DNA of 64,000 nt. Source: Bacillota bacterium (lineage in GTDB: Bacteria > Bacillota > Clostridia > Ch29). Of this stretch, positions 12,736-64,000 are shown piece after piece. Position 1 is the first letter of the stretch; the number at the start of each line of letters is the position of its first letter. A program made the translations under genes and the position numbers. The notes under the pieces are model-generated. The model saw only the letters and a program-made list of their open reading frames with translations, made no database searches and was not told the DNA's origin. The stretch covers positions 21,469 to 85,468 of the forward strand of contig JAXGPT010000001.1 of the NCBI GenBank assembly GCA_040766775.1, written 5' to 3'.

Positions 12736-12771
12736 GCGGGGGCCAGCTTTCATAGAATAAGGAGGCGGAGC

Positions 12772-13935: not shown

Positions 13936-14012
13936 CCCGGAAAGCATTCCTATCAAAAACCTCAAAAAAGATTACAAAATAATAAACGGTAATACAATTT
14001 TTTGATAAATGT

Positions 14013-14042
14013 TTGACAGGAATTTTAAGTATTATGTAGAAT
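14013..14042 (+). promoter_or_regulatory. candidate promoter of the V-type ATPase operon
   Basis: TTGACA (14013-14018) - 18 nt - TAGAAT (14037-14042); a second TATAAT at 14115-14120. Confidence 0.45.
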
Positions 14043-14174
14043 GTATACATGTATTAATGGGGGCCTTCGTCCCTTATTTCATGCATGTAATTTTTATTAT
14101 GTAAAATTTTATAGTATAATAAAGGTACATTGGAGAATCGTTCCCATGTATCGCAGAGAGGTGGTGAGTATCCG

Positions 14175-28108: not shown

Positions 28109-28145
28109 TAAAATACGACTATATTACACAATGGAGGAGAGAAGA

Positions 28146-29228: not shown

Positions 29229-29274
29229 GGTTTTAAGAAACGATCATGTTAAATAGGAAGGAGGGAAGAATAAC

Positions 29275-29937: not shown

Positions 29938-29963
29938 GATTTTCTTAAAAAGGGGGTAGAAAG

Positions 29964-30491
29964 ATGAAGCCGGAGAGTGGTATTAAAAAGGCACTTAACA
30001 AATTGATTTCATTACAGAAAATGGTAACCGTTGTACTAGTGCTGGCTTTAACTGTTATGGTGGTTGTCCAGGTTGTATTGAGATACGTTTTCAAGGCACC
30101 GCTTATGGGGATCGAAGAAATGATGCTGTTTCCCATCATATGGCTTTATATGATAGGGGGGGCAAATGCTTCGCAGCAGAGGAATCATATTGAATGTGGT
30201 GTTATGACGGTATATATCAAGAGACCAATAGTTTTAAAGCTATTTAATGTGGTAAAAAGCTTAATTTCTATAGTTGTATGTATATGGTTGACATACTGGG
30301 CGTACTGGTTCTTTGATTACTCCCTGACCCGTTGGAAAGTAAGCGACCTTCTGTATATCCCGATGTTTTTCGGGGAAAGTGCGATGTTTATCGGGTTAAT
30401 TCTAATGCTTGTATATGCCGTAATTGAATTCATGGATTATGTAAAGGACTTTAGCAACAGTATATTTGCAGTTGATAAGGAGGAGATATAA
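29964..30491 (+). CDS. dctQ: TRAP transporter small permease (DctQ)
   Basis: 4-TM, about 175 aa, immediately precedes and abuts DctM. Confidence 0.85.
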   Translation: MKPESGIKKALNKLISLQKMVTVVLVLALTVMVVVQVVLRYVFKAPLMGIEEMMLFPIIWLYMIGGANASQQRNHIECGVMTVYIKRPIVLKLFNVVKSLISIVVCIWLTYWAYWFFDYSLTRWKVSDLLYIPMFFGESAMFIGLILMLVYAVIEFMDYVKDFSNSIFAVDKEEI

Positions 30492-35359: not shown

Positions 35360-36662
35360 GTGAAAAAGCTTAAGTTTGCACACTATATTAATCAGTTTTA
35401 CGGACAAATCGGTGGGGAGGACAAGGGCGACCAGCCACCGGTTGTACATGAAGGGGCAGTTGGACCCGGCAGTGGATTGGAAAAGCTCTTTGGAGAAGAA
35501 GGAGAAATTATTGCAACGGTGATATGCGGCGATACTTACTTTGCAGAAGAATCCGGAAAAAGCTGTGGAAGATATAACGGATATACTAAAAAATTTGATT
35601 TTGACTGTTTTATTGCCGGGCCCGCCTTTAATGCCGGAAGGTACGGCATAGCCTGCGGTGCTATCTGCAGGGCGGTCCAGGAACGGCTGGGGCTCCCCAC
35701 TGTGACTTCAATGTACACCGAAAACCCGGGAGCGGAGATATATGCAAAGGATATTTATGTGCTAGAGACCGGCAAGTCGGCTGCTGCAATGAAAGACGCG
35801 CTGCCTGTCATTGCTGAATTTGCCCTGAAACTTGCCAGGGGCGGAGATAGGTTTCCCGGAAGATGAGGGATACATTCCGCAGGGCAGAAGGGTAAACGTA
35901 TTTGCAGATAAAACTGGCGCGGTAAGGGGAGTGGATATGCTGCTTTCCAAGCTGAAGGGAGAGCATTTTACAACCGAACTGCCTATGCCTGTTTTCGATC
36001 GTGTGCCCCCGGCACCGGCGGTAAAAAATCTAGCCCGGGCAAAGATTGCGCTTGTGACATCGGGAGGGGTTGTGCCCAGGGGAAATCCTGACCGCATAGA
36101 GGCGGCAAACGCTACCAAATATGGCAAGTATTCCATTGAGGGTATAGACGACCTGGTTAAGGATGAGTATATAACCGTTCATGGCGGATATGACCCGGTG
36201 TATGTACTTGAGGACCCGGACCGGGTGCTCCCGGTTGATGTAATGAGACTGCTTGAAAAGGAAGGAGTTATAGGAAAGCTGTTTGAATACTTTTATTCCA
36301 CCGTGGGTAACACCACCGCTGTTAGCAGCGCGAAGCGTTTCGGAGAAGAGATTGGTAGGGATTTGCTGGCAAATGGTGTGGACGGAGCAATACTGACCTC
36401 TACCTGAGGCACCGACACCCGTTGCGGAGCAACGATGGCTAAGGCTATTGAAGAGCTGGGTATTCCTGCGGTGCATGTGTGTACCATTGTTCCGATTTCT
36501 GAAACTGTGGGCGCAAACAGAATACTGCCGGGGGTTGCCATACCCAATCCCACCGGCAATCCTAACCTAAGCCAGCATGACGAGTTTATGCTGCGCAAAA
36601 ACCTCATGTTAAAAGCTCTTGATTCTTTGAAGAGCGCAATAGAAGAGCAAACAGTTTTTTAG
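35360..36662 (+). pseudogene. GrdB-like selenoprotein (reductase protein B gamma type) with in-frame UGA at 36405-36407; one frameshift near 35835-35866 as assembled
   Basis: ...GVDGAILTST-TGA-GTDTRCGATMAKAIEELGIPAVHVCT... matches the U-containing active-site context of GrdB/GrdF/GrdH. Reading continues in frame to 36662. Confidence 0.8.
36408..36440 (+). promoter_or_regulatory. candidate bacterial SECIS hairpin downstream of the UGA
   Basis: CGUUGC-GGA-GCAACG (36420-36434), extendable by CC/GG with a 2-nt bulge; starts about 11 nt after UGA. Confidence 0.4.
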
Positions 36663-36758: not shown

Positions 36759-37328
36759 TTATTCGTGCTGGCGGGCTTCGCCGCCGATGGGTTCAATCCT
36801 TAACACTCTTGCCACCGATTTGTATACAAGTACCGTAAGGGCCGAGTTTGCAGTCGCCTTTATAAGGTTAAAGGGTACTATGATGGGCACAATCATTGCC
36901 TTTACCGCCTCAACGGGTACTCCCAGGAACTTGGTGGTGAAATAAAGGTTAAGCGGTATCATTATAAGGGTCATGCCAAGGGTGCCCGCCGCAAGGGCCA
37001 AAACAGCCCCTTTGAAAGTGTGTACCTTCCTGTAAATAAGGCCTGCCACCAAAACCATGGTGCCGGTGGCGACCATATGCATCACCGCTCCGATCCAGCC
37101 GCTCCCCGCGCTGACGGTGGTGGCCTGGAACAGCGAAACCGCGGCGGTTATCAATAGTCCTGCGCCCGGGCCGTACAAAAATGCGCCTATCAGGGCGGGA
37201 ACGTCCCCCGGTTCGTATTCTAAAAAGGGTGCCGATGGAATGATTGGAAATCGGATGACCATCATTAGCAGTATTGACAGTGCGGAAAGCAGTGCCAGTT
37301 TTACAATTTTGTTCAAGTCTTGATTCAT
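36759..37328 (-). CDS. ribU: ECF transporter S component, riboflavin type (RibU-like)
   Basis: Six-TM S-component pattern and an FMN riboswitch directly upstream. Confidence 0.8.
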   Translation of the reverse strand: MNQDLNKIVKLALLSALSILLMMVIRFPIIPSAPFLEYEPGDVPALIGAFLYGPGAGLLITAAVSLFQATTVSAGSGWIGAVMHMVATGTMVLVAGLIYRKVHTFKGAVLALAAGTLGMTLIMIPLNLYFTTKFLGVPVEAVKAMIVPIIVPFNLIKATANSALTVLVYKSVARVLRIEPIGGEARQHE

Positions 37329-37345
37329 TGCAATTTACCTCCCTG

Positions 37346-37515
37346 AAAATTAAAATTCCCTGCAATATAATCCCAGGGAAATAAAAAAATCAATCTTCTC
37401 CCATCCAGACTATACTGTCGGCCCCGGAATCGCACCGGGTCAGCGTGAGCTCGCGGGCTAGCGGACCTTATCCGCATTACCGCCGGTCGGGAATTTCACC
37501 CTGCCCTGAAGATTA
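37346..37515 (-). promoter_or_regulatory. FMN riboswitch (RFN element) with terminator expression platform
   Basis: Minus strand reads ...CUUCAGGGCAGGGUGAAAUUCCCGACCGGCGGUAA...AGCCCGCGAGC...GGUGCGAUUCCGGGGCCGACAGUAUAGUCUGGAUGGGAGAAG, then hairpin UUCCCUG/CAGGGAA + U-run (37346-37380). Confidence 0.92.
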
Positions 37516-37658
37516 TATTTGGTTTTCCTAAAAAATATAATAGCATCGAGACATTGCGATGTCAAGGGCCGGGAAAAGTATCCCGGCGGTATCATACTTT
37601 AATTTAATGGCACAATAAAGTATAATAGGATAAAGTACCAAGGATAGGAGGGAGCGAA

Positions 37659-49776: not shown

Positions 49777-50823
49777 TTGAATGAGGGAAGCTCAATCGGC
49801 AAAAACGACAGCGGGCAGAGGGCGGATAAATTCTGAAAAGTTCATGCCTGATGCATCCGCCGGGTTTATATACGGCAGCATGAGGAGGAAGAAATAAGGC
49901 TTAACGGTAAAGCTGAAGCCGTCCACCATACTGGCCGAGGGGGACGTCCTGCAGTTTTACATGGACGGTGAAGACTTTGAAGGACAGGCAGCCCTTGGAA
50001 GCCCCGGCAGCTCCGGCAGCTCCTTTTCCGGTGGCGTACCAGGACGGGAACATATTAATTGCCGACAAGCCGGCGGGCCTTTTATCCCATCCCGACGGCC
50101 GGAAGAATGGGACGCTGGCCGACTGGGTAGTGTACTATCTTTATGAAAACGGTGAATACAATCCCCGGGAGAGAATACCTTCACCCCAGCCATATGCAAC
50201 AGGTTGGACCGCAACACCGGCGGGCTGGTTATAGCGGCCAAGAACTGCCGCGCTGCAGGACATGAACCTTATGATCAGGGAAAGATGGGTTGAACGGTAC
50301 TATAAACTGGTGGTGGCAGGGATAATAGACAAACCGCTGGATATTTCGGCGTATCTTGTGAAGGATGAGCGGACAAACAAGGTGAGGGTAGAGGACCGGT
50401 GGAGCGAGGGAAGCGACCGGATTGAGACCTACATAAAACCGTTGAGGCACAGCCCCCGGGGCTATACGCTGCTGGAGGCGGAGCTTTTACCGGGAAGACC
50501 CACCAGATAAGGGCCCACCTGCTCATATAGGCCACCCGCTGGTGGGGGACACCAAGTACGGGGACGGGGAAATAAATGAGTTTTTCAGGAAGGACTTTTG
50601 CCCAGGCACCAGTTTCTATACGCGTACCGGCTGGTGTTTAAGAGAACAACGCCGCTTTTCAAATACCTTGAGGGTATGGAGTGTTATGCCGCTGCCGGAA
50701 AAGCTGGAGGCACATAGAGCAAGAGCTGTTTGGCAGGGTTTGTATCATACCCCCTATGGCGGCGAAACTAACGGTTTTCTTATCCCCCGGCAGACCTTGG
50801 GAGCAGTAAAGTTTCCTCTTTAA
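49777..50823 (+). pseudogene. RluA-family pseudouridine synthase with S4 domain; many frameshifts as assembled
   Basis: Pieces ...GQRADKF..., ...YQDGNILIADKPAGLLSHPD, ...RLDRNTGGLVIAAKN..., ...YYKLVVAGI..., ...HQIRAHLAHIGHPLVGDTKYG in different frames; ends approximate. Confidence 0.65.
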
Positions 50824-50898
50824 GGGGCCGGGGGGCTTTATTCATTTTGTGTTTTTATGGTATAATGGGGTATATTTTATATGCAGGGGCATCCTCCG

Positions 50899-51979
50899 AT
50901 GATTACAAGGGAACAACAAGGGAATATATGTATGGGCTGGGGTTGTGCCGGGTCGGGTTTCATGCCGGGCCTTTGGCTGGCTGGAGGGGTGCTTGAAGAA
51001 AGGCACGCTCGGTACCTTTCGGGCTTTGAAAAGGGGGGCTGTAAAGGAGCGGTGCCGTCCCGGCGAGTGCTTTGACTGGGTGCGGTCCATCATCTCGGCC
51101 GCATACCCCTACAGGCTGTACCGTGACGGCCAAGGCTCCGGCCTTAAGGGCACCATAAGCGGCAGCGCCGTAGGGGAGGACTATCACCGTTTGCTGGGCG
51201 AAAAACTGCGCCAGGCGGCGGAATTTATATCCCGAAGGGTGGAGGGCTTTCGTTACGAAATCATGGTGGATACAGGCCCGCTGGCCGACCGGGAGGTGGC
51301 ATGCCGCTCGGGGGTAGGATGGTTTGGCAAAAACTGCTCCATAATAACCCCTTCCTTTGGGTCGGCGGTGGTGCTGGGGGAGATACTTACAAACCTCGAA
51401 CTGGAGCCGGACCCGCCGATTGAGGGTGACTGCGGTGAATGCGCCCGCTGCATTGAAAGCTGTCCCACCGGCGCCCTGGTGGCGCCCTATACGCTGGACG
51501 CCCGAAGGTGCATATCCTACCTGACCCAGAAAAGGGGGGGCATCCCCCGGGAAATAAGGGATAAAATGGGGGTTAGCCTCTACGGGTGCGACCGCTGCAT
51601 CGAGGCCTGTCCCCACAACCGGCACGGCTTGGAAGACAGCGGACCGGCCGCAGTGGACCTGGAGCGGCTGGTAACGATGGACAAGAAAGAGTTTGACAGG
51701 CTGTACAAAAACAGTGCCCTCGGCTGGAGGGGGCTTAACGTGATAAAACGAAACGCGGTGGTGGCCCTGGGCAACCTTGGGGCCCGGTCGGGGCTTGATG
51801 TTTTGGAAGAGGCATTGAAACACCCGTCCGCCGTAATAAGGGGACATGCCGCCTGGGCGGTGGGTCGAATCGGCGGCCAAAGGGCGCGTGAAATGCTCGA
51901 AAAAAGCCTTGACAGTGAAAGGGACCAATACGTGAGGGAGGAAATAACAGCCGCCCTGGCCGGGTTGAAGCAAGATTAA
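50899..51979 (+). pseudogene. queG: tRNA epoxyqueuosine(34) reductase QueG; frameshifts in the first ~150 nt as assembled
   Basis: Body intact (50945-51979): two ferredoxin motifs CGECARCIESCP / CDRCIEACP, C-terminal HEAT-like repeats; N-terminus ...YGLGLCRVGF... in other frames. Confidence 0.85.
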
Positions 51980-52067
51980 GGAAATTGGCCGGGGAAAATG
52001 GCGGTTTATAGAGGCCGGGAGTGCATCCGCCGACAATGTGGATGAGAAAATACAAGGAGGGTGTTTA

Positions 52068-52769
52068 ATGAAGTTCAAAGTATATCCGGAAGTTTTCGAG
52101 AAGCTGCCCAATGTCTGTTTTGCGGTGGTGGCGGCGTACGGGATAGACAACCGGGGGGAGCACAAGAGAATACAGGAACTCTTAATGCACTCACTCGAAA
52201 AGGTGAGAGAGGAAATTGGCGGTACCGACATAAAGAAAAACAGGGATATAATTCCTTACAGGCAGGCCTTTTCCGAGCTTGGATTTAACCCCAACAAGTA
52301 TTTAAGCTCCATTGAAGCTATGGTCAAAAGGGTGGCCAAGGGCGGCGACCTGCCTTCAATAAACCCTGTGGTGGACCTTGTAAACGCGGTGTCGCTGCAA
52401 TACATGCTCCCGATGGGAGCCCATGACATGGACGCGCTGGAGGGTGAAATTGCGGTAAGGTTTGCGGTGCCGGGGGATACGTTCGTCCCGTTGGGCGAAA
52501 CCGGCGAAGAGGCGGTGGAGCCGGGGGAACTGGTTTATGCCGATGCCAAAAGGATAAGGACCAGGAGATGGATTTGGAGACAGAGCGACCGGGGCAAAAT
52601 AACCGCCGAAAGCAGAAATATATTTTTCCCGATAGACGGTTTCCGGGGTGAAAACTGCAACAGGATGCTGGAGGCGAGAAACAAGCTGGCGGCGCTGCTT
52701 TCCGAGCATTTCGGGTGCCGGGTGGAAAAGTACTTTATTAAAGACGATTGTAGCGAGGTGGACCTTTAA
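52068..52769 (+). CDS. B3/B4 domain protein (Phe-tRNA-synthetase beta-subunit-like tRNA-binding domain)
   Basis: Family pattern ...NPVVDLVNAVSLQYMLPMGAHD...; ATG behind AGGAGGG. Confidence 0.7.
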   Translation: MKFKVYPEVFEKLPNVCFAVVAAYGIDNRGEHKRIQELLMHSLEKVREEIGGTDIKKNRDIIPYRQAFSELGFNPNKYLSSIEAMVKRVAKGGDLPSINPVVDLVNAVSLQYMLPMGAHDMDALEGEIAVRFAVPGDTFVPLGETGEEAVEPGELVYADAKRIRTRRWIWRQSDRGKITAESRNIFFPIDGFRGENCNRMLEARNKLAALLSEHFGCRVEKYFIKDDCSEVDL

Positions 52770-52808
52770 AAAAAACCTGTATCGGTCAATGCCGATACAG
52801 GTTTTTTT
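52768..52808. terminator. bidirectional terminator between B3/4 gene and htrA
   Basis: AACCTGTATCGG-N6-CCGATACAGGTT flanked by A8 / T7. Confidence 0.85.
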
Positions 52809-53976
52809 AATAGTTTGCAGGCCTCGCTTCCAGCTTCACGTCCACTGTGTTTTGGGTTTTTCCCCTGTAGTATGTGACTTTTATGGTATCCCCCGGCCTG
52901 TATTTATAAAGCTCCCTGGTAAGCTGGCTCATGCCGTTTATCTTCTTGTCGTTAAGGGCGGTTATTATATCCCCGGCTCTCAGCCCGGCCTTGCCGACCG
53001 GCGTGTTATTGCCCGCCTCGAACACGTAAACGCCGTCTTCCACAGCCAGCTCTATGCCGTGCTGTCTTCTTACCGCCTGCACGTCTATGCCGCGAATCCC
53101 TAGGTATACCATCGTGAATTTACCCTCTTCAATTATCTGCTCCAGGATTGGCTTTGCCTGGTTTATGGGGATGGCAAAACCAAGTCCCTCCGCCACGTTG
53201 GATGATATTTTGGCGGTGTTCATTCCTATTACCTCGCCCTTCGAGTTCAGCAGGGGGCCGCCGCTGTTTCCCGGGTTTATGGATGCATCGGTTTGTATCA
53301 GGTCCTCCATTACCTCGGATTGCGACAGTTGGATGGACCGGTGCAGCCCGCTTATAATCCCCGAGGTGACGCTTCGCTGGAAGTCAAGCCCCAAGGGGTT
53401 TCCTATCGCAATGGCGAGTTCTCCCACCATAAGCTTGTCGCTGTCGCCCAGGTCGGCCACCGGCAGGTTTTTGGCGTCCACCTTAAGCACCGCCATGTCC
53501 AGCGTGCTGTTGTTCCACAATACCTTGGCGTCTTTTTCGGTACCGTCGTTGAACAGCACTGTGATTTTTTCGGCCTGTCCGCTGTTAACCACGTGGTCGT
53601 TGGTCAGGATGTACCCATCCGGGTGTACTATGAACCCCGAACCCACTCCCTCGCCCCGTCGGGGTATACCAAAGAACATGTCCCTTTGGATTGTAACGGT
53701 GGTAACCCCCACCACCGTCGGAGTGGCTTTCTGCGCCACCGCGGATACTACCGTAATATCCTCGCCGCTTGGCTCTATGACTATTTGGCGCTGGTCGCCC
53801 GAGGGAACCTGGATTATGTTCTTTTCCATGATGGTTGGCATATAATAGGCTGTCAGAAGGCTTCCCACTATTGCCCCAATAAGGGCGAATACAAAGGCCT
53901 TGAACGCGCCGGAACGGCGGGGATAATTCCTGTGGTAATAGTCATCATTAGGATTGCCGGGTGTGTAATTGTCCAT
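52807..53976 (-). CDS. htrA: HtrA/DegP-family serine protease with one PDZ domain
   Basis: TM anchor, His/Asp/Ser triad blocks (TNDHV, D.A, NPGNSGGPLLN), C-terminal PDZ. Confidence 0.92.
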   Translation of the reverse strand: MDNYTPGNPNDDYYHRNYPRRSGAFKAFVFALIGAIVGSLLTAYYMPTIMEKNIIQVPSGDQRQIVIEPSGEDITVVSAVAQKATPTVVGVTTVTIQRDMFFGIPRRGEGVGSGFIVHPDGYILTNDHVVNSGQAEKITVLFNDGTEKDAKVLWNNSTLDMAVLKVDAKNLPVADLGDSDKLMVGELAIAIGNPLGLDFQRSVTSGIISGLHRSIQLSQSEVMEDLIQTDASINPGNSGGPLLNSKGEVIGMNTAKISSNVAEGLGFAIPINQAKPILEQIIEEGKFTMVYLGIRGIDVQAVRRQHGIELAVEDGVYVFEAGNNTPVGKAGLRAGDIITALNDKKINGMSQLTRELYKYRPGDTIKVTYYRGKTQNTVDVKLEARPANY

Positions 53977-54251
53977 TGTTTCCTGCCTCCTTACCGGAAA
54001 TTACCGAAACATAGTATTAAAATACCCTTAATATTATATTCTAAAACCGGCCCAGAGAAAAATCAAGAAAGCAAAGGGGCGGTTCTCCGCTTCCATTTTA
54101 AAGGGCAGCGAAGGGGCATTTTTTCAGCGTTTCAGGACAGGGCAGCACATCTTTAATTTTATGGAGGAAAATGGGTTATCCTATAGTATAATTAAAGTGG
54201 AGTATTAATAGCCGGGCGCTGCGCCCGGTATTGGAGGGGGAAAAAGGAAAA

Positions 54252-55446
54252 ATGAAAACGCCTAGCGTACACGAGATGCATTTCCTGAAGGAGAAGATTG
54301 ACCAGTTTAAGGAGCAGGGAGTGTACCGGAAGCTACCGGAGCTCCAGGGGGCCTTCGGGAGCCCTGTCGGTTATAAACGGGAAGGAGGTAATAAACCTTT
54401 CTTCCAACAACTACCTGGGTTTTGCCAACCATCCGCGGCTTAAGAAAGCCGCCATTGAGGCGGTGGAAAAATACGGCGCCGGGGCCGGTGCGGTAAGGAC
54501 CATAATAGGTACCATGGACATACATAACCAAATGGAGTCGATACTGGCCGAGTTCAAAAGGGAGGAAGCGGTCATAGTATTCCAGTCGGGGCTTACCTGC
54601 AATTCCGGGACCATACCGGCGGTTATGGAGGACGGCGACCTTATTATCTCCGACGAGCTGAACCATGCAAGCATTATCGACGGCTGCCGCCTTTCAAAGG
54701 CCAAAACCGTACGGTTCAAGCACTCGGACATGGACGACCTCGAGAGGGTCCTTAAGGAGAACTGCCACAAGTACAGGAACCGCCTCATAATAACCGACGG
54801 CGTGTTCAGCATGGACGGGGACATCGCAAAGCTGCCGGATATTGTGGAGCTGGCGGAGAAATACGAATGCATGACCTATGTAGACGATGCCCATGCCAGC
54901 GGCGTGCTGGGGGAAAGCGGCAGGGGTACGGTGGACCATTTCGGGCTCCACGGCCGGGTGGACTTTACAATAGGCACCCTTTCAAAGGCAATTGGCGTAA
55001 TGGGGGGATATGTAGCCGGTACCCGGGTGCTCATTGACTGGCTCAAGCACCGGGGAAGGCCCTTCCTGTTCAGCACTGCCCACCCGCCGGCGGTGGTGGG
55101 GGCGGTCATAGAGGCGATAAAAATGCTGATGGAGTCCACCCAGTACACCGACAGGCTGTGGGACAATGCACGCTACTTCAAGGCAAAGCTGGAAGCCCTG
55201 GGTTTCAACACCGGCAAGAGCGAAACGCCCATAACCCCGGTTATAATAGGCGAGGAGGCCAAGGCCATGAAGTTCAGCGACAGGCTGTTCGAGGAAGGGG
55301 TATTTGCCCAGGGTATTGCGTACCCCACCGTACCGAGGGGTACCGCCCGTGTAAGGACCATAGTGACCGCCGAGCACACTAGGGAGCAGCTGGACCGCGC
55401 CGCCGAAGCGTTCAAAAAGGTCGGGGAAGAGATGAAAATACTGTAG
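54252..55446 (+). pseudogene. kbl: glycine C-acetyltransferase (2-amino-3-ketobutyrate CoA ligase) / AONS family; one frameshift near 54350 as assembled
   Basis: N-terminal 35 codons in one frame, remainder ([17 protein letters not shown]..., PLP-Lys TLSKAIG) in ORF 54298-55446. Confidence 0.85.
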
Positions 55447-55453
55447 TAAGCAT

Positions 55454-55478
55454 ACCGCCCTTCATCGGGGCGGTTTTA
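55454..55478 (+). terminator. intrinsic terminator after kbl (overlaps the 3' end of the DUF5131 gene)
   Basis: ACCGCCC-TTCATCG-GGGCGGT followed by TTTT. Confidence 0.65.
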
Positions 55479-56208
55479 TATTGGCATGTTCAGTTGGGTT
55501 TATTTCAGGCATGTCATCCCAGGTTTTCCCCAAAAGTTTCCGGCCATTTTTCTTTTTATTTGTCCCACCCCATTGTTTAAAATAAAAATAGACTTTTTGC
55601 TGTTCACATTGGTTCTTTATATTTAAAATCCAATCCTCTTCAATCTTTCTACAATTAAATCCGCTTTCTCCTCCTACAATAACCCAATCTATACTACTAA
55701 GATTGACACTACCGACATCTCCAATAAGCGGCTCAAAAGATACAAATTTTATTCTTGCGGGCACTCTTTTTAGAAGCTCTATCCTGCTTTTATATTTTTC
55801 GCTTTCCACAGTTACACCCTGCCAGATGTTAGGGCTCCAGTTAAGCTGCTCTGAAATCGAAACCAAACGCTCGGCTCTTTTGGTCAATATTTGAAAAGTA
55901 TGCCATGTTGCCTGATTCATAATATCAAATACTTGCTTAATAAAACCAATTGGTACTTCTTCATGAAAAAGGTCCGACATGGAATTAACAAAAATTAAAG
56001 ATGGTTTATTCCAATTCAGTGGTTCTGTGAGGCAGTTTTTATGTAGAGTGACTTTAAAACCGTTGACATATTTTCTATTCCCCATTCCTTGTAGTCTTTT
56101 CGCCATTCTATAAGCATAACAATTTTGACAGCCGTCGGAGATTTTTGTACACCCTGTTACGGGGTTCCAGGTATTTTCCGTCCATTCTATTTTTGATTTA
56201 AGAGCCAT
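55462..56208 (-). CDS. DUF5131 / phage Gp37-Gp68 family protein with N-terminal three-Cys motif
   Basis: IEWTENTWNPVTGCTKISDGCQNCYA (C-x6-C-x2-C), ...WVIVGGESG..., ...FYFKQWGG...; ATG 56208 behind GGAAAGGGGA. Confidence 0.85.
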   Translation of the reverse strand: MALKSKIEWTENTWNPVTGCTKISDGCQNCYAYRMAKRLQGMGNRKYVNGFKVTLHKNCLTEPLNWNKPSLIFVNSMSDLFHEEVPIGFIKQVFDIMNQATWHTFQILTKRAERLVSISEQLNWSPNIWQGVTVESEKYKSRIELLKRVPARIKFVSFEPLIGDVGSVNLSSIDWVIVGGESGFNCRKIEEDWILNIKNQCEQQKVYFYFKQWGGTNKKKNGRKLLGKTWDDMPEINPTEHANIKPPR

Positions 56209-56224
56209 TTTAATTCCCCTTTCC

Positions 56225-57049
56225 TTATTCAACTATATGGGTCAAAATGTGATCGGCAGCTTTAAGAGACAATCGAATAGCGGTATCAGAAGGATTGCTG
56301 ACACAAAAACAGATCAAAAATAACGGCGCTCTCTTTTCCACATTGGTCAATATCTTTGCATTGTCTGACACGCCAGGAAACACAGTTTTTAGACGCCTTA
56401 TAATGTATTCCCGTATAGAATCAATAGAACACTTTTCAAGGTTTTTATTATCTAAAAAAGATAGTTGTCGTGATTCTCTGTATAATTCTTTGCGCCAGTC
56501 GTCAGTGCCCAACAGTATATTAAGCTTTTCTTCGTAGCTATCCGGTATTCTTCTATCTCTGCGAAGCAATCTATTCATTGCCATTAAGGGGAACAGGTAC
56601 CAAACATCAAAGGCTTCGGTTTGAGCTATCACCTTTAAGGATTCCCATCTTAATTCCATTGCAAAAGGGTCTATGAATATAACACCTCGCCATCCCTCTT
56701 TTTTCCATTGGACGGCGCTTAATGTTTTTAAAAGTTCATTGCAGTCACCCTGCATAATAACAACACTTTTATGTTGATGTTTTTTTGAGATTTCTTTTTT
56801 TAATGCGGTGATATAACTTTGTTCCTTTTCAAAAAAGTAATACTCATGAAACGGATAATCCAATGCCCTGATGGCAGAACCGGGTATTGCTATTTCTCCC
56901 CTGATATCGATTTTACCGCTTCCGGCAAATGCATCTATATAACATAGTTTAAATGGTTGGTTTTTCAAAGCTGTGGTGTAAAAATTCAAGTACTTTTCTA
57001 ATACCTCCAGTTTAATTAGTGTCCAGAGGCCGCCGAATCTCTGTCGCAT
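56225..57049 (-). CDS. tcmP: three-Cys-motif partner protein TcmP (methyltransferase-like fold)
   Basis: GGLWTLIKLEVLEKYLNFYTTAL, YIDAFAGSG, FFEKE, QGDCNELL, IFIDPF; ATG 57049 behind GGAGGTG. Confidence 0.8.
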   Translation of the reverse strand: MRQRFGGLWTLIKLEVLEKYLNFYTTALKNQPFKLCYIDAFAGSGKIDIRGEIAIPGSAIRALDYPFHEYYFFEKEQSYITALKKEISKKHQHKSVVIMQGDCNELLKTLSAVQWKKEGWRGVIFIDPFAMELRWESLKVIAQTEAFDVWYLFPLMAMNRLLRRDRRIPDSYEEKLNILLGTDDWRKELYRESRQLSFLDNKNLEKCSIDSIREYIIRRLKTVFPGVSDNAKILTNVEKRAPLFLICFCVSNPSDTAIRLSLKAADHILTHIVE

Positions 57050-57090
57050 TTCAGCACCTCCAAAATACGAACACATGTTTCTCTATATAT

Positions 57091-57119
57091 ATAATAACTT
57101 ATTTTAATCATTTATTCAA
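57091..57119 (-). promoter_or_regulatory. candidate promoter of the tcmP-DUF5131 pair
   Basis: Minus strand TTGAAT (57119-57114) - 17 nt - TATTAT (57096-57091). Confidence 0.45.
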
Positions 57120-57370
57120 CATTTTTTAGAAATAATGTTATATATAACAAGGCTTCAACATCTGAGGGTTTGCAGTAATCTATGTACAACGCACTAATAG
57201 TATTACATTCCTTTATATTTTATTAACAGGATGCGAAAATCCGGAGAAACTGTAACACTAGGAGGTATAAAGCTCTAAATGCGTTATATAGGATATGAAT
57301 AATAGTAGCTGAGCTATCCAGCGTTATAGTAACTTGTGGTTATTGCAGAAAATAGCGTAATACAAGGCTG

Positions 57371-57399
57371 TTGGCGTTTGACGGTGCTTTTGGTATAAT
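57371..57399 (+). promoter_or_regulatory. candidate promoter of the DUF503-nth unit
   Basis: TTGGCG (57371-57376) - 17 nt incl. TGG - TATAAT (57394-57399). Confidence 0.5.
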
Positions 57400-57413
57400 T
57401 ATACTATACTTCT

Positions 57414-57711
57414 GTGGGGGTATTGGCGATATGTATACCGGGATATGCAGTGCTTGATATAATACTATATGATTCAGGGATGCCTAAAGGACAGGAGAAG
57501 GATACTAAAAGCATAACCCGAGATCAGGAACAAGTTCAACGTATCGGTATCCGAAGTTGGAGAGGGCGACAAATGGCAGACCGCATCCATCGGGTTTTCC
57601 ACCGTCTCCAACAAGGCGGCACAGGTGGACAGGGTGATGGATGAGGTTATAAGGTTTGTGGAGACCGACGGCCGGATTGAAATAGCCCGGTGCCGCAAGG
57701 AAATGGTTTGA
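57414..57711 (+). pseudogene. DUF503 (YlxP-like) protein; frame broken as assembled
   Basis: ...GYAVLDIILYDSG / LKDRRRILK / EIRNKFNVSVSEVGEGDKWQTASIGFSTVSN... matches the DUF503 pattern but needs 2-3 indel corrections. Confidence 0.65.
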
Positions 57712-57732
57712 ATACAGCACAGGAGGACCATA

Positions 57733-58373
57733 ATGGGACAAAGGAACGAAGAAGATATAAGGAGAAAGACGGTACTGGATATCCTGGAGAGGACTTACCC
57801 GGACGCAACCACCGAACTGGTGCACAAAAATCCCTACCAGCTGCTTATAGCGACCATGCTTTCAGCCCAGACTACCGACAAGCAGGTGAACAGGGTAACA
57901 CCGGAGCTTTTTAAAAGGTTTCCGGATGCCAAGGCCCTTGCGGAGGCGGATATAGGCGAGATTGAGAGCCTTATAAAAACCTGCGGGTTTTATAAAACCA
58001 AGGCAAGGAACATAAAGGAAGCTTGCCGCGTTATAGTGGAGGAATATGGAGGAAAAGTTCCGCAAACCCTGGAGGAGTTGACGGCCCTTCCGGGGGTGGG
58101 CAGGAAAACGGCAAACGTGGTGCGAGCAACGCCTTCGGCGTGGACGCCATAGCCGTCGACACCCATGTATTCAGGGTGGCCAATAGGCTGGGGCTGGCGC
58201 AGTCGGGGGATGTGAGGGGCACCGAGGAACAGCTGATGGAAAACATCCCCAGGGAAAAGTGGTCCCGTGCACACCACTGGCTGATTCATCACGGCAGGAG
58301 GATATGCAAAGCCAGGAGACCCAAGTGCGCCGAGTGCCCGCTGGCGGAAGTTTGCAGATCTGAAGCGGAATAG
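57733..58373 (+). pseudogene. nth: endonuclease III; one frameshift near 58120 as assembled
   Basis: HhH LPGVGRKTANVV, then (other frame) VDTHVFRVANRLGL and 4Fe-4S CKARRPKCAECPLAEVC. Confidence 0.88.
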
Positions 58374-58386
58374 TAACGGCTGTCGC

Positions 58387-58422
58387 GTAATCAAAAGAAC
58401 CGTCCCTATGATTGCTATGATT
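58387..58422 (-). repeat. dispersed intergenic repeat, copy D (reverse orientation)
   Basis: Reverse complement reads CCAATCATAGCAATCATAGGGACGGTTCTTTTGATTAC. Confidence 0.8.
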
Positions 58423-58435
58423 GGAGGGGTGGGAA

Positions 58436-60373
58436 ATGGTAAACACGATATTCGCGCTGGATATAGGCACAAGGACGGTGGTGGGGGTGCTGGCCCGGGG
58501 CAGTGCCGACCGGGACCTGCTGGAGATTATTGATATGGAGGTTATGGAGCAGCGACCGGAGCATGTTTGACGGGCAGATACACGATATCCCCAAGGTAAC
58601 CGAAGTGGTAAAAAGCGTAAAAACCGACCTGGAGAACAGGAACAACTGCCGGCTGCAGCATGTATCGGTGGCGGCGGCAGGCAGGGCCCTCATTACCCAC
58701 AGGGTGAGGGTAACAGAAAACGTCGAAGGACGGGAGCCGGCGGATTCCACCTTTATAAACAGCCTGGAGCTTAAAGCGATGCAGGAAGCGCAGCAGCAAA
58801 TACAGGATACATACAAGGACAATTCGCAGCACTACTGCGTGGGATACAGCGTCGTGGACTACTACCTGGACGGGGTGCCCATAAAAAGCCTCGAAGGCCA
58901 CAGGGGCCATGAAATGGGCGTGGAGGTTATAGCCACCTTCCTGCCGCGGTCGGTGGTGGAAAGCCTCTACGCGGTTATGGAAAGGTCCGGCCTCGAGGTT
59001 ATAAATCTTACGCTGGAACCCATAGCGGCCATTACGCTGGCCATCCCGGAAAAGCTGCGATGCTGAACCTTGCCATGGTGGACATAGGCGCCGGAACGTC
59101 AGATATCGCGATATCCCGAAACGGCAGCATTTCCGCCTATGCAATGGTATCCATGGCCGGGGACGAAGTGACCGACGAAATAGCGCAGCATTTTTTGCTG
59201 GACTTTCAAAGTGCCGAAGGGGTGAAAAGAAAGCTTTTCTCGGGGGCTTCTTCGACCGTTTGCAGGGATGTAATGGGAAACCAGCTTACAATAAGCCGGG
59301 AGGAACTGTGCGAAATAGTCCGACCGGTGGTGGAAAGGATTTCCCACAGTATTGCCGAGAGCATTATAGAATACAACCAGGGACCGCCCAAGGCGCTGTT
59401 TTGCATAGGGGGCGGCAGCCTTACCCCGGGTATTAAAGAGTGCCTGCAATCCCGCTTGGGGCTTCCCGAAAGCCGGGTGGGCATAAAGGGCCTGGAGGAC
59501 AATGAGAGGCTTATGGTTTCGGTACCCGGTTTTACGGGGCCCGATTATATAACCCCTGTCGGGATTGCGCTGGCGGGATACAGGGCCGCCGGGGACCATT
59601 TTGCCGATGTTACCGTCAACGGCAAGGGCCTTCGGCTTCTAAGAACAAGGAGGATTACCGTAAGCGATGCACTTTTGTCCATTGGTTTTTCTCCGAGGAA
59701 GCTGATACCCGCAAGGGGAGAGAGCATCAGTTTTTACATAAACGGCCGGGTAAGGGAAATAAAAGGGGAACCGGGCCGGCCCGCGGTTATCAGGCTGAAC
59801 GGGCAGCAGGCCGGCCTTGATTCCGAGCTGAAAAACGGCGACGTGGTGGAAGTAACCGAGGCCGCCGCCGGCAGCCCGGCAAGGCCCACGGTGGCGCAGG
59901 TAATACAAAAAGAATCCTGCCGGGTTACGCTGGAGGGCAAAGAAATTGCACTGCCGGTCAAGTGGACTTTAAACGGTAAAGAGGCGTCCGCCGATGAGGT
60001 TATAAACGACGGGGACAGGCTGGATATTACACGCATAAATACTTTAGGAGAGTTTATAGAAGCATGCGGCCTTCCGAAAAAAGGATATGTCTACAGCATA
60101 AACGGCCAAAGAGCGGACTTTGCGCAGCGGCTTAACGACGGGGACAGCATTTCCCTTAGGGAAGAAACCCGGGACAGGGTAATAACCGTCATGGTGAACG
60201 GCAAAAGGGTGGACCTTCCGTTCAGGGAAGAGCCGTACATATTCGTGGACCTTTTCAGGTACATGGACTTTGACGTGGAAAGGACAAGGGGTAGAATACA
60301 GCTTGCCATAAACGGCAAAAAAGCGGGATATACAGATATAATCAGGGAAGGGGACAGCATAGAAATAATGTAA
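58436..60373 (+). pseudogene. actin/FtsA-like ATPase with three C-terminal ThiS/MoaD-like modules; 2 frameshifts (about 58550, about 59060) as assembled
   Basis: ALDIGTRTVVG, MVDIGAGTSDIAI, FCIGGGS phosphate motifs; C-terminal repeats ending ...NGDVVEV / ...DGDSISL / ...EGDSIEI. Confidence 0.75.
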
Positions 60374-60392
60374 TCATGGGGACGGTTCTTCT
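60371..60392 (+). repeat. dispersed intergenic repeat, truncated copy E
   Basis: TAATCATGGGGACGGTTCTTCT starting on the TAA stop of the actin-like gene. Confidence 0.7.
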
Positions 60393-60579
60393 TAAAGCCG
60401 GAAGCCCATGGTCTTATGTATTTATAAAGCCTGACAGAGTGAAGAGGGTCAACTTGGGCTAGGTTTGGGGCAGTAATTCCTGTTGAGGCAGGAATTTTCC
60501 TTTTTGCAAAGAAATTCTTAATGTATGTCGTAAGAAGACTTATGTATCATACAAAAATGACGGATGGGAGTAGAGGCTT

Positions 60580-61257
60580 ATGAATGGACCCCTGTATCAG
60601 GTGAAGGTGAAGTGCCCGGTCTGCGGGGCATCCTTTAATACCAGCCGGGTAAGGAGTAAAAGCTGCATCGTGGAGGGCAGGGATACGGATTTTTGTGTAT
60701 ACTATAAGGAGTGCAACCCCATATATTACGAGGTCGCCGTGTGCAGGCACTGCGGCTACGCGGACATGTACAGCCGGTTTGATGAAATAGACCCGGAGGA
60801 TGCGGGCATTGTACGGGCAGAGATTGAGGGAAAATGGAACGGCAGGGACTTTGGCGGTGAAAGGACCATGGAGGACGCATTGGACTCTTACAAGCTGGCG
60901 CTGTTTTGCGCCCAGCTGCGAAAGGGCACCCCCGCCGGGGCGCTTGCGTCCATTTGCATGAGGCTGGCTTGGTTATACAGGATGAAAGGGGATGCCAAGG
61001 AGGAAAAGAGGTTCCTAGCCCATGCGCTGGAACAGTACATGGAGCTCTATGACAGGGGCAGGACACCCGAAAAGATGGACGAAATAACGCTTGTTTACCT
61101 TATAGGGGAGTTAAGCCGCCGGCTGGGCAAGGGAAAGGATGCGGTGGTGTGGTTCAACAGGGTTGTATCCCATGAAATGAGCAAACAAAAGCCCTTGATA
61201 GTGAGAATGGCAAGGGAGCAGTGGTCGCTGGTAAGGAATACAGGGCAGGAGGTGTGA
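60580..61257 (+). CDS. DUF2225 domain protein (zinc ribbon + TPR-like helical domain)
   Basis: CPVCG ... CRHCGY ribbon, helical C-terminal two thirds. Confidence 0.7.
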   Translation: MNGPLYQVKVKCPVCGASFNTSRVRSKSCIVEGRDTDFCVYYKECNPIYYEVAVCRHCGYADMYSRFDEIDPEDAGIVRAEIEGKWNGRDFGGERTMEDALDSYKLALFCAQLRKGTPAGALASICMRLAWLYRMKGDAKEEKRFLAHALEQYMELYDRGRTPEKMDEITLVYLIGELSRRLGKGKDAVVWFNRVVSHEMSKQKPLIVRMAREQWSLVRNTGQEV

Positions 61258-61262
61258 GAGGG

Positions 61263-61793
61263 ATGGAACAAAGGATTGTTTACTGCCGTTTTGATACTGC
61301 AATAGGTCCAATGCTGGCGGCGGAGGGTCCCCCATGGGCCTTTGCAGGTTGTGCCTCCCGGGAGAGGGCGAGGGTTTTTTTGACTGGGCGGCCAAGAAGT
61401 ACCCGGGGGCTGTTGTGGAGGAAGGCTGCAGCGAATTGTTAAGAAGTACCCGGCAGCAGCTTGAGGAGTACCTTTCGGGTGCAAGAAAGACCTTCTCGGT
61501 AACGCTGGACCTAAAGGGAACGGTATTTCAAAGGAGGGTATGGCATATACTTATGCAGATACCCTACGGAGGCACTGCCAGTTACAAGGATGTTGCAGTG
61601 ACTGCCGGAAGCCCTGCCGCCGTCAGGGCGGTGGGCCAGGCGAACAACAGGAACCCGGTGCCGATTATAGGCTCCCTGCCACAGGGTGGTGGGCAGCGAC
61701 GGAAAGCTGGTGGGGTATGGCGGGGGGCTGGACATTAAACGCCGCCTCCTGGAGCTGGAGGGAATTAAGGTGCGGAAGGAAAGCATAATATGA
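61263..61793 (+). pseudogene. ogt: methylated-DNA-protein-cysteine methyltransferase; at least 2 frameshifts as assembled
   Basis: ...FQRRVWHILMQIPYGGTASYKDVA...; active-site [25 protein letters not shown] only after a frame correction. Confidence 0.8.
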
Positions 61794-62342
61794 GAAAGGG
61801 CCTTGTATATGTTACCGGGGGTGCCCGCAGCGGTAAGAGCACCTTTGCGGAAGGGCTCATGATGGAGCAGGGGCACAGGATTTTATACATAGCCACCGCC
61901 GTCCCCTTCGACAATGAGATGAGGGACAGGATAAAAAAGCACCGGCAGGAAAGGCCCTCTTTTGGCGCACCCTTGAAGCCTACAAGGGTATAGGCAAAAG
62001 CCTTGAAGACAGGGGGGAACGTTTCCACGGTATACTGTTGGACTGTGTTACCGTTATGATAACCAACCTTATGATGGACATGGGCTTTGACGAAGAGGAG
62101 TTTACCCCGAAAGGACAGCCCGGATGGAGGCACAGGTGATGGCGGAGGTGGATTCCGCGATCTCGGGAATAAGGAAATGGGCAGATTTGGGCGTAATAGT
62201 ATCCAATGAAGTGGGGATGGGGCTGGTGCCGGAAAGCCCATTGGGAAGGATTTTCAGGGACATTGCCGGCCGGGTCAACCAGCATATAGCCGCTGAAGCG
62301 GACAGCGGGTACCTGCTGGTTTCAGGCATCCCCCTGAGCTGA
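61790..62342 (+). pseudogene. cobU: adenosylcobinamide kinase / adenosylcobinamide-phosphate guanylyltransferase; frameshifted as assembled
   Basis: P-loop GGARSGKS, ...IATA.PFD.EM..RI..H...R..., C-terminal VSNEVGMGLVPESPLGRIFRD in another frame; ATGA overlap with ogt. Confidence 0.8.
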
Positions 62343-62473
62343 AGTAAGTTTTCACCGGCGAAGTGCTTTATATGGACGGCCGGTTTTAAAAAACCCTCGT
62401 GCCGGAGGCCCTTGAAACCGGAGGGGCTGTTTCCGATGTTTGCATGGAGGGCAAAAAGCGAGGATGGTAAAAC

Positions 62474-63015
62474 ATGGCGAGAAAAACTCTTGAAAGGGTC
62501 TTATACAGGTATATACGGGAGACGGCAAGGAAGACCACTGCGGCCCTGGGCCAGGCCCTAAGGTCGGTGGGCGCCGGTTACAGGGTGTACATGGTCCAGT
62601 TCTTAAAGGGCGGAAAAACAGGGGAGCTTGAAGCCGCCAGGAGGCTGGAGCCGGACTTTAAAATTTTCCGTTTTGAAAAGGAGAGGGTTTTTTCTGGACG
62701 CTGGACCAAAGGCAGAAGGAGGAACTTAAGGCGGAAGTTAAGAAAGCCTTTGAATTTGTAACCGACGTGGTACGGCAGCAGAGCTGTGACATCCTGATAC
62801 TGGACGAAATAATGGGTATACTGCATAATGGACTTTTAACCGAACAGGATATTTGTGAACTGTTGGAACAAAAACCGGATAAAATGGAAATAATACTAAC
62901 CGGTAGGAATGTCCCGGACAGGATAAAGGAAATGGCCCACCTGGTGACCGACATGAAAATGATAAAGCACCCCTTTGAACAGGGTATTGGCCCCCGGGAA
63001 GGGATTGAATTGTAG
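62474..63015 (+). pseudogene. cobO: cob(I)yrinic acid a,c-diamide adenosyltransferase (CobO/BtuR type); frameshifted as assembled
   Basis: KGLIQVYTGDGK / GKTTAALGQALR / ...ILILDEIM...EIILTGRN... in shifting frames. Confidence 0.8.
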
Positions 63016-63016
63016 C

Positions 63017-63760
63017 ATGAAAGGGTTTATTGCGATACTTCGGTTTACAACAAGGCTGCCCATTCCCCAACGGGAGGACACCACCGAAAGGGACCTTTTA
63101 GGGGGCATAAAGTATATGCCTCTGGCGGGGGGCATCATTGGGGCGGTGGCGGCCCTTATATACAGGGCCCTTTATGGTTTTGACCCCGCGGTGGCGGCCA
63201 TAGCGGCGGTGCTGTCGGAAATCGTAATAACGGGGGGCCTTCACCAGGACGGCCTGGCGGACACCTTTGACGGCCTGTACAGCGGAAAGGACAGGGAAGG
63301 GACGCTGGAGGTCATGAAGGACAGCAGGCTGGGTACCCATGGCGTCCTGGCCCTTACCGGGGCGCTGCTTTTAAAGGTGGCCCTTGTAAATGCACTCAAA
63401 GAGCCGGGGGCACTGCTTGCGGCGCCGGTGTTTTCAAGGCTTGCGATGGTTTATGGTGCCGCGTTCTCAAGGAGTGCCAGGCAGGCGGGGCTGGGATGCT
63501 TGTTTATAAACGGCACATCCGGCCGGGATGCCCTGGCCGCCGGCCTTATAGCAGCGGCTATAAGCCTTTATGCCGTTGGAGCCGCTGTAACGGCTGCCGC
63601 CAGGGTAGTTTCGCCGGCAATTGCCCTTGCCGTCGTAAAGCTTTGCAGCCGGAGGATAGGCGGCATGACGGGGGATACGTTGGGGGCCTTGGGTGAAATA
63701 GCCGGGTTGGGCTTTCTGGTTGTTTACTGTGTGGTCATTGGTATTGCAAAATTAGTGTAA
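63017..63760 (+). CDS. cobS: adenosylcobinamide-GDP ribazoletransferase (cobalamin synthase)
   Basis: Polytopic, ...GGLHQDGLADTFDG... signature. Confidence 0.9.
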   Translation: MKGFIAILRFTTRLPIPQREDTTERDLLGGIKYMPLAGGIIGAVAALIYRALYGFDPAVAAIAAVLSEIVITGGLHQDGLADTFDGLYSGKDREGTLEVMKDSRLGTHGVLALTGALLLKVALVNALKEPGALLAAPVFSRLAMVYGAAFSRSARQAGLGCLFINGTSGRDALAAGLIAAAISLYAVGAAVTAAARVVSPAIALAVVKLCSRRIGGMTGDTLGALGEIAGLGFLVVYCVVIGIAKLV

Positions 63761-63814
63761 ATGAGAAATGCTTATTCTTTAAACCCAGTTAAATCAGTAG
63801 AAGGTGGTATTGGG

Positions 63815-64000
63815 ATGTTGGAGCTAATAATTGTAAGGCACGGGGAAACCGAGGGCAACAAGAAAAGGATATACCAAGGGTGGACGGATACCGAACTCAA
63901 CCAAACCGGCCTGCGCCAGGCCCAGCGCCTTGCGGAAAGGCTTAAGGACAAGGACCTGGACATCATATACAGCAGTCCGCTTAACAGGGCGCTGGCAACG
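63815..64000 (+). CDS. cobC: histidine phosphatase family, alpha-ribazole phosphatase-like (3' end outside window)
   Basis: LIIVRHGETEGN catalytic RHG motif; position after cobS. Confidence 0.75.
   Translation, partial: MLELIIVRHGETEGNKKRIYQGWTDTELNQTGLRQAQRLAERLKDKDLDIIYSSPLNRALAT

Follow-up and report, generated by a model that had tools for sequence, protein, structure and literature searches.

The 64-kb window of DNA analysed here, from an uncultured Clostridia bacterium, carries a low-GC cassette of two genes, TcmP ('three-Cys-motif partner') and DUF5131 (phage Gp37/Gp68 family), inserted between kbl and the DUF503-nth operon; all coordinates below are positions in this window. We put the chances at even that the cassette is a mobile, self-contained module that uses S-adenosylmethionine (SAM) to modify nucleic acid, probably DNA, in the conflict between phages and their hosts. 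It is a member of a catalogued candidate family, TIGR04474 plus PF07505, and not a new kind of system. Both component models of the PADLOC entry PDC-M41 are matched at full length by adjacent, co-oriented genes in the same order. The phage defence candidates (PDCs) are a set of 145 predicted from their embedding in BREX, DISARM and type I restriction-modification (RM) systems (Payne et al., bioRxiv 10.1101/2024.01.29.577857). Here the cassette stands alone between housekeeping genes and is not embedded in a defence system, but is otherwise structurally the same. An earlier note on this DNA, made from the sequence alone, had described the pair as known only as a recurrent gene couple; that description needs correcting, since PADLOC lists the pair as a candidate and DUF5131 is itself a listed radical-SAM subgroup, and for the same reason the idea of a defence role is not new.

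The insert occupies ~1.88 kb (55479-57361, minus strand), with borders good to ~10 nt as placed by related-genome alignments, junction comparison and G+C content, which drops from ~0.55-0.58 to 0.31-0.40 between ~55450 and ~57400. At 0.361, the G+C content of 55479-57361 is the minimum of the window and lies at z -4.3 relative to 583 non-overlapping 1.9-kb reference windows (mean 0.518, sd 0.036). The G+C content at third codon positions is 0.33 for DUF5131 and 0.36 for TcmP, against 0.60-0.73 for five neighbours (kbl, an HtrA-like protease, a B3/4-domain gene, nth and an FtsA-like gene). The cassette consists of two minus-strand open reading frames (ORFs) only, TcmP (274 aa, 56225-57049) and then DUF5131 (248 aa, 55462-56208), whereas kbl, DUF503 and nth all lie on the plus strand. 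The starts at 57049 and 56208 were placed on the basis of homologue lengths (270-275 aa for TcmP, 236-244 aa for DUF5131) and ribosome-binding sites; for TcmP, an ORF lister had begun a 283-aa frame at 57076, while GGAGGTG at 57055-57061 is followed after 5 nt by ATG at the start chosen here. The two genes meet at what reads as an operon junction, a 16-nt intergenic spacer (56209-56224, minus strand) with the DUF5131 ribosome-binding site (AAAGGGGA). The earlier note had reported a strikingly AT-rich block, opposed in polarity to both neighbours and with TcmP and DUF5131 as its sole genes, and each of these points is borne out, the gene identities by the TIGR04474 and PF07505 matches.

Comparison with relatives, collected by a Kbl-protein scan with one genome per species, leaves acquisition of the cassette by horizontal transfer beyond reasonable doubt. 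In five related genomes whose Kbl is 87-93% identical in amino acid sequence to that of the window (L003-L007), the insert is absent and DUF503-nth follows straight after kbl, with a spacer of 14 to ~160 bp. Alignments to L003-L006 end at 55446-55458 and restart at 57377-57391; the more divergent L007 has the same empty site, with its nucleotide alignment restarting at 57780, inside nth. At the junctions, the foreign DNA sits in a spacer of ~17 nt between the kbl terminator and the DUF503-nth promoter. Four conspecific contigs (L001, L002, L104 and L184; 97-99% nucleotide identity to the window) carry the insert at the identical site, and a sister-lineage contig, L105 (91.6%), carries it at the same site. 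Empty sites, filled sites and outlying composition together confirm the horizontal acquisition that the earlier note had suggested, and the comparison it had proposed, of whether kbl and DUF503 adjoin in relatives, finds them adjacent in all five insert-free genomes. These empty sites rule out a place for the pair in core synteny or a housekeeping role. Between the window and L105, synonymous divergence (dS) is 0.196 for TcmP, 0.204 for DUF5131 and 0.187 for kbl, and the ratio of nonsynonymous to synonymous divergence (dN/dS) is 0.19 for TcmP and 0.15 for DUF5131. The equality of dS with the flanking kbl and the low dN/dS point to a single insertion that predates the split of the lineages and has since been inherited vertically under purifying selection.

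The junctions assign several elements to the host rather than to the insert. A terminator hairpin (55454-55474) with its T-run, together 55454-55478 on the plus strand, is native to kbl, and similar hairpins follow kbl in the insert-free L005 and L006. The stop codon of DUF5131 (55462-55464) falls in the loop of this hairpin, so that the frame has been lengthened by ~10 codons into native DNA; in this point the earlier note needs correcting. On the other side, a promoter at 57371-57407 (plus strand; TTGGCG/TTGACG ... TATAAT/TATACT, 10/12 matches) belongs to the DUF503-nth operon, lies outside the insert and is kept in the empty-site genomes L004-L006. Within the insert, the TTGAAT-17-TATTAT sequence that the earlier note had taken for the cassette's own promoter is present (57091-57119, minus strand, read from 57119 to 57091; 9/12 matches) ~35 nt upstream of the TcmP ribosome-binding site, and both of its hexamers are kept in L105, whose contig is 8% divergent, but promoter-like sites in the AT-rich region are no commoner than in shuffled sequence (8 vs 6.8 +/- 2.9). 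We regard its assignment as the cassette promoter as plausible.

Upstream of TcmP, the non-coding DNA that the earlier note had seen on one side of the genes amounts to ~310 nt (57050-57361). Its AT-rich part (57120-57361) arrived with the cassette, being alignable to L105 over its full length and absent from L003-L007. A terminator-like hairpin lies within it on the minus strand (57322-57308), and the short ORFs touching it are of 25 and 20 aa inside and of 36 and 20 aa across its edges. A hidden element in the 310 nt was rejected, since there is no internal ORF of at least 40 aa and no Rfam match even at E <= 1. Signs of a mobility mechanism were equally absent, as the earlier note had it: the window holds no tRNA, the flanks of the cassette no integrase or transposase, and the junctions no target duplication or terminal inverted repeat. 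The sole border repeat (15 nt, 55434-55448 vs 57348-57362) was rejected as a mobility signature and is put down to chance, because it matches at only 80% and is degraded further in L105.

Several sequence variants were seen at the locus. The flanking genes kbl (54231-55446), DUF503 (57431-57711) and nth (57733-58373) are frameshifted in the window only, through an extra G at 54347, indels at 57451, 57476, 57506 and 57519, and a split of nth near 58125; they are intact in L001, L002 and L184 (Kbl 397 aa, DUF503 93 aa, Nth 213/214 aa), and TcmP and DUF5131 are intact in the window. These frameshifts are either assembly indel errors or real pseudogenes. In L105, a 1-bp deletion in a homopolymer (56773-56780; T8 on the plus strand, A8 on the TcmP coding strand) would shift the TcmP frame; possible causes are a sequencing error and on/off switching by slipped-strand mispairing, as found in RM methyltransferases. 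In L002, 10 bp are inserted at 56236, at the TcmP 3' end and shortly before the DUF5131 ribosome-binding site; this insertion is the only difference between L002 and the window over 54739-56977. Across 50000-64000, the window and L002 form a mosaic, near-identical at 51.0-57.0 kb with the insert included and 5-8% divergent at 57.0-58.7, 60.2-60.7 and 61.2-62.0 kb, a pattern suggestive of inter-strain recombination, one boundary of which lies near 57229, in the upstream non-coding DNA of the cassette.

The methyltransferase character of TcmP comes from its motifs and predicted fold. The protein matches TIGR04474 at 177 bits (cut-off 53, E 6.5e-52) over residues 18-272 of the 283-aa ORF and PADLOC PDC-M41A at 280 bits (E 6.4e-84). 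Its AlphaFold2 (AF2) model is confident (predicted local distance difference test, pLDDT, 91.9; predicted template modelling score 0.90), and the top match in the Protein Data Bank (PDB) found by Foldseek is 2oo3, a Legionella DUF519 protein of the RlmJ family (E 2.9e-6, template modelling score, TM, 0.52). A further 117 PDB matches reach E <= 0.001, and among the matches listed nearly all are class I SAM-dependent methyltransferases. Motif I reads D39-A-F-[AS]-G-S-G45, an acidic residue closes strand 2 at position 74, motif III is D102-C-N, and motif IV, D127-P-[Y/F], is one residue shorter than D/N-P-P-aromatic; motifs I-IV are kept in 45-46 of 46 homologues, in which K13 and Y20 of the N-terminal helix are also essentially invariant. 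On these grounds TcmP looks like a catalytically competent methyltransferase acting on the exocyclic amine of a nucleic-acid base.

RlmJ, the DUF519-family 23S rRNA m6A2030 methyltransferase, offers the closest comparison. It is the best fold match, has the same size and shares a Rossmann-type core with a helical insertion, a motif I of the xDxxxGxG type and a motif IV of the D-P-x-aromatic type. RlmJ differs in having DPPY where TcmP has the shorter D-P-[YF], and TcmP has no sequence membership in DUF519: it matches no Pfam family at E <= 0.01, and DUF519 is absent from the weak matches of the 46 members. TcmP is thus not a member of the RlmJ family at the level of sequence, and the likeness is structural only. 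RlmJ is moreover a solitary core gene, whereas TcmP occurs sporadically, is mobile and always comes with a radical-SAM-type gene. By sequence, weak RsmD-family matches appear in 11 of the 46 TcmP members, and a search of solved structures returned marginal RsmD-family matches only (E 0.008).

DUF5131 is far more conserved than TcmP, with 65-78% identity across Bacillota, Dehalococcoidia and Bacteroidales. It covers all of PF07505 (profile positions 1-243 of 243; 327.6 bits, gathering threshold 28.9, E 6e-98), matches PADLOC PDC-M41B at 392 bits (E 2.6e-118) and also matches phrog_2045. The cysteines of a Cx6Cx2C motif (C20, C27, C30), followed by Y-A, do not vary among 8 diverse bacterial and phage members; across 44 close homologues, C20 and C30 are likewise fixed, and C27 is kept in at least 90%. 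Bacteria, actinophages and one cyanophage all keep C201 and the motifs GGESG, NSM[SA]DLFH and LTKR without exception. All 44 homologues also match TIGR04471 (radical SAM mobile pair protein A), with scores under the cut-off of that model. In Foldseek, DUF5131 finds its best natural PDB matches in spore photoproduct lyase (SPL), MiaB, NifB, LIAS (lipoyl synthase) and EpeE, all radical-SAM enzymes; for the four best-scoring SPL entries, TM is 0.47-0.49 at a probability of 0.97-0.99, with E only ~1e-2 and a query model of pLDDT 77.7. Variant cysteine spacings occur within the radical-SAM superfamily. The family is catalogued as a radical-SAM subgroup (megacluster 5-2, RadicalSAM.org; SFLD) beside spore photoproduct lyase (PMC9477430). 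By this curation and the fold, DUF5131 would be a minimal Fe-S/radical-SAM-type enzyme with a partial TIM barrel, and we hold it very probable that both enzyme classes, taken jointly, are correctly assigned. The structure predictions that the earlier note had proposed thus give a confident methyltransferase fold for TcmP and a radical-SAM-like fold, in a moderate model, for DUF5131.

SPL (PDB 4fhc, 4k9r) is the closest natural solved fold to DUF5131 and a neighbour of its subgroup in the radical-SAM sequence network; it is a radical-SAM DNA repair enzyme and acts on DNA. It has CX3CX2C in ~340 aa, whereas DUF5131 has Cx6Cx2C in ~240 aa, with no detectable sequence similarity and no link to sporulation; a sequence search of solved structures with DUF5131 returned no match, SPL included.

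A metagenome scan with the TcmP profile ties the two genes firmly together. All 73 loci with enough sequence beyond TcmP have a co-oriented DUF5131 gene 3-269 bp downstream, and the 7 remaining loci, which lack it, end within 97 bp of TcmP; in this sample the pairing is obligate. A conserved third partner was rejected, because the 150 ORFs that flank the pair at 35 non-redundant loci include at most 4 from any one Pfam or PADLOC family. The family is large: among 1.84 billion representatives, TcmP accounts for 5,020 clusters at 50% identity when the limit is E <= 1e-3 and for 913 when it is tightened to E <= 1e-30, and TcmP/DUF5131 is widespread, named and flagged as a defence candidate. Two natural TcmP fusions, P0295 (608 aa, with DUF1848) and P0284 (1226 aa, with an FGE-sulfatase-domain protein), may reveal partners that TcmP modules can serve. 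The DUF1848 part of P0295 ends in CLHGCKYCYA, a canonical CX3CX2C, and DUF1848 has been reported next to the methylase-reverse-transcriptase fusions of the defence-associated UG25 group. The UG25 arrangement and P0295 resemble the cassette in joining a methyltransferase to a Cys-cluster (CxxxCxxC) enzyme in defence-associated loci, but UG25 includes a reverse transcriptase and the Cys-cluster family is DUF1848, not DUF5131. Homology between DUF1848 and DUF5131 was not detected in a low-power comparison of profile against single sequence (probability 3%).

The earlier note had proposed a survey of gene neighbourhoods, which places the pair in clear defence islands at 4 of ten distinct Pfam-annotated loci, a raw count with no background rate, and finds that phages carry variants. 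The islands contain SIR2-HerA, type III RM and transposases (L083); McrBC, HicAB, GmrSD and AbiV (L088-L090); a type I hsdS-Abi_C-hsdR set directly followed by the pair, at the locus holding the closest non-conspecific relative in the protein search (L096); and SNF2/methyltransferase/ResIII with PemK (L099). Toxin-antitoxin pairs or methyltransferases lie nearby in three more (L091, L098 and L101), and the surroundings of the last three (L081, L085 and L087) are plain housekeeping. The pair is poorer in G+C than the DNA around it at 6 of 8 other loci, by 0.03-0.26, a pattern that suggests repeated transfer of TcmP/DUF5131. In S. meliloti, the gene directly following hna, which is a validated defence gene, is listed as TcmP (PMC12445080). 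At L101, ~1.2 kb downstream of the pair (12740-14153 of that locus), a 202-aa Radical_SAM/Fer4_12 protein with weak matches to viperin models is encoded by a gene that overlaps the gene of a 271-aa protein of no known family, with two N6_N4 methyltransferase genes near; this locus may hold a second radical-SAM 'mobile pair' in the same island.

The two families are distributed very differently in phages. DUF5131 occurs in 178 of 50,697 phage GenBank records, chiefly from Mycobacterium and Gordonia phages, and TcmP in 7 of the same records, with 2 loci only in a scan of IMG/VR, so that TcmP is essentially bacterial. Synechococcus phages Ssp-JY39 and Yong-M2-251 have the full PDC-M41 pair in convergent orientation; here and in the Gordonia phages described next, the partnership persists despite the convergent arrangement. 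In Gordonia phage Angelique and its relatives, DUF5131 is convergent with a TcmP-like 'methyltransferase' of 365 aa (PDC-M30A), and this pair (gp42-gp43) is located between the integrase and the immunity repressor. That interval is the usual site of prophage-expressed defence genes in actinophages. PDC-M30 is close to the cassette in that its DUF5131 is 48% identical, matches PDC-M41B and PDC-M30B almost equally and is paired with a TcmP-related methyltransferase-like protein; it differs in the greater length of that partner (365-372 aa), which has ~28% identity over the N-terminal 180 residues (sister phage Jablanski), in its convergent genes and in its place in a prophage immunity region. 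In phage Bakery, the stop of a C5 DNA methyltransferase gene overlaps the DUF5131 start, and in a fourth locus (TChen) a methyltransferase gene lies five genes from DUF5131. Six other sampled phages have a longer DUF5131 (290-400 aa) as a solo gene in early/replication gene blocks, near MazG, a PAPS-reductase-like gene, HNH and RuvC; solo phage DUF5131 thus keeps company with DNA metabolism.

A mechanism consistent with these features can be outlined. TcmP and DUF5131 would act jointly on one nucleic-acid substrate, most likely DNA. TcmP would bind and flip a base and methylate it on nitrogen, and DUF5131, by means of a [4Fe-4S] cluster and SAM, would generate a 5'-deoxyadenosyl radical to modify that same site or one next to it. 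The outcome would be an unusual mark serving in conflict with phages or other mobile elements, as a self-mark or shield in bacteria, while in phages with DUF5131 it might have an anti-restriction or takeover function. That the substrate is nucleic acid we consider somewhat better than an even bet, with DNA distinctly favoured over RNA, and a role in phage-host conflict about evenly balanced. The earlier note's suggestion of DNA or RNA modification or defence is strengthened by the folds, the obligate pairing, the islands at 4/10 loci and the variant in a prophage immunity region.

Several observations weigh against such a module. The surroundings are plain housekeeping in 3/10 bacterial contexts and in the window itself, and the count of 4/10 islands has no background rate. 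The nearest relatives of TcmP methylate rRNA, not DNA. The AF2 model of DUF5131 is moderate (pLDDT 77.7) and its PDB matches are weak (E ~1e-2), its cysteine spacing is Cx6Cx2C and not the canonical CX3CX2C, and its Pfam matches at E <= 0.01 do not include PF04055 (Radical_SAM). No effector or nuclease is recognisable in the cassette, which leaves immunity from modification alone unexplained. Among ten inspected phage loci, a methyltransferase gene stands immediately beside DUF5131 in only three, and the solo state of most phage DUF5131 implies that this radical-SAM-type enzyme can work without TcmP. A literature search returned no functional paper or experiment on DUF5131, TcmP, PDC-M41 or PDC-M30.

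The most direct rival casts the cassette as an RM analogue, in which TcmP self-marks host DNA and DUF5131 damages unmethylated incoming DNA by radical chemistry, not hydrolysis; we think this unlikely. Like a type II RM system, the cassette is a mobile, self-contained two-gene unit of foreign composition, with the methyltransferase first and frequent in defence islands, and its 16-nt coupling resembles operons in which M precedes R. The low G+C content, the repeated transfer, the positions next to or inside RM systems and the Bakery C5 DNA methyltransferase gene overlapping DUF5131 fit the same picture, as does SPL as nearest solved relative by fold match, an enzyme that binds DNA and flips out damaged bases. 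However, the second gene has no nuclease fold but a radical-SAM-type barrel: Pfam, PADLOC and Foldseek gave no nuclease family for DUF5131, and the cassette encodes no endonuclease partner of the PD-(D/E)XK, HNH, GIY-YIG or PLD kinds that mark type II RM. We know of no radical-SAM nuclease. Restriction enzymes diversify in specificity, whereas DUF5131 is far better conserved and remains 65-78% identical across phyla, and a toxic effector is hard to square with the many phages that carry DUF5131 without a partner methyltransferase. An RNA-modifying pair acting on rRNA or tRNA, conferring antibiotic resistance like Cfr/Erm or a translation-level block to phages, seems to us no more likely than the RM analogue. 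The best structural and sequence relatives of TcmP are rRNA and RNA-cap methyltransferases (the RlmJ family, RsmD, Tgs1-like proteins, RlmCD), and in some phage annotations DUF5131 bears the label 'RNA methyltransferase'. Methylation of rRNA adenine is known from the radical-SAM enzymes RlmN and Cfr, and the cassette is small, mobile and AT-rich with its own putative promoter, like resistance cassettes. Yet the pair is embedded in DNA-modification-based systems and located in phage DNA-replication blocks, the solved fold nearest to DUF5131 belongs to an enzyme acting on DNA, DUF5131 has one extra invariant cysteine (C201) where RlmN and Cfr need two, and the 5' untranslated region of ~35 nt has no leader or attenuator.

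Two further accounts carry less weight. A small-molecule pathway, with DUF5131 making an antiviral nucleotide analogue as viperins do and TcmP methylating the substrate or product, is in our judgement very unlikely: radical-SAM defences with such logic have been proven in the prokaryotic viperins (pVips) and Ophion (bioRxiv 10.1101/2025.09.30.679545), and some phage DUF5131 genes lie beside MazG-type NTP pyrophosphohydrolases or HD hydrolases, but DUF5131 has no pVip match in the PADLOC scan, the D-P-aromatic motif of TcmP is typical of base-flipping nucleic-acid methyltransferases, there is no kinase or nucleotide-binding partner, and phages would be carrying a polymerase-poisoning gene. The family name (phage Gp37/Gp68), the 178 DUF5131-bearing phage records and the foreign composition would also suit a decaying prophage remnant or a passenger 'moron' without function for the present host. 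This we regard as highly improbable, given that no other phage gene, integrase or att-like repeat occurs at the site, that both ORFs are intact while three flanking genes are frameshifted in the window, that dN/dS is 0.15-0.19 over a dS of ~0.2, and that TcmP is in only 7 of the phage records. A bolder reading is conceivable but unlikely: a new epigenetic immunity, either by radical-SAM restriction of unmarked DNA or by N-methylation and then a radical-SAM step that writes an undescribed DNA base modification. On that reading the bacterial pair could provide the self-mark and the solo DUF5131 of phages the counter-measure.

The locus is a clean natural experiment, a 1.9-kb, putatively promoter-bearing pair with exact empty-site controls and long-term purifying selection, and its clean delimitation, with the empty sites and the selection, makes the cassette the minimal unit for cloning. 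Should the pair write a new nucleic-acid modification or restrict DNA by radical chemistry, phage-host conflict would gain a new enzymology, and a new means of marking DNA or RNA might follow; should it turn out to be an orphan methylation system of the ordinary type, reclassification of the PDC-M41 candidate would be in order.

Elsewhere in the window, the stretch with the second-lowest G+C content (28101-31792, ~0.41) encodes an octopine-dehydrogenase-like oxidoreductase, a GntR/FCD regulator and the TRAP subunits DctQ and DctM, and is a metabolic island, not a defence island. A SECIS_4 element (36408-36445) lies straight after the stop of the ORF for GrdB, the glycine/sarcosine/betaine reductase selenoprotein B (35832-36445 region), so that this stop is probably a selenocysteine codon. 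An FMN riboswitch on the minus strand (37389-37517) precedes the S component of an ECF riboflavin transporter (36759-37517 region).

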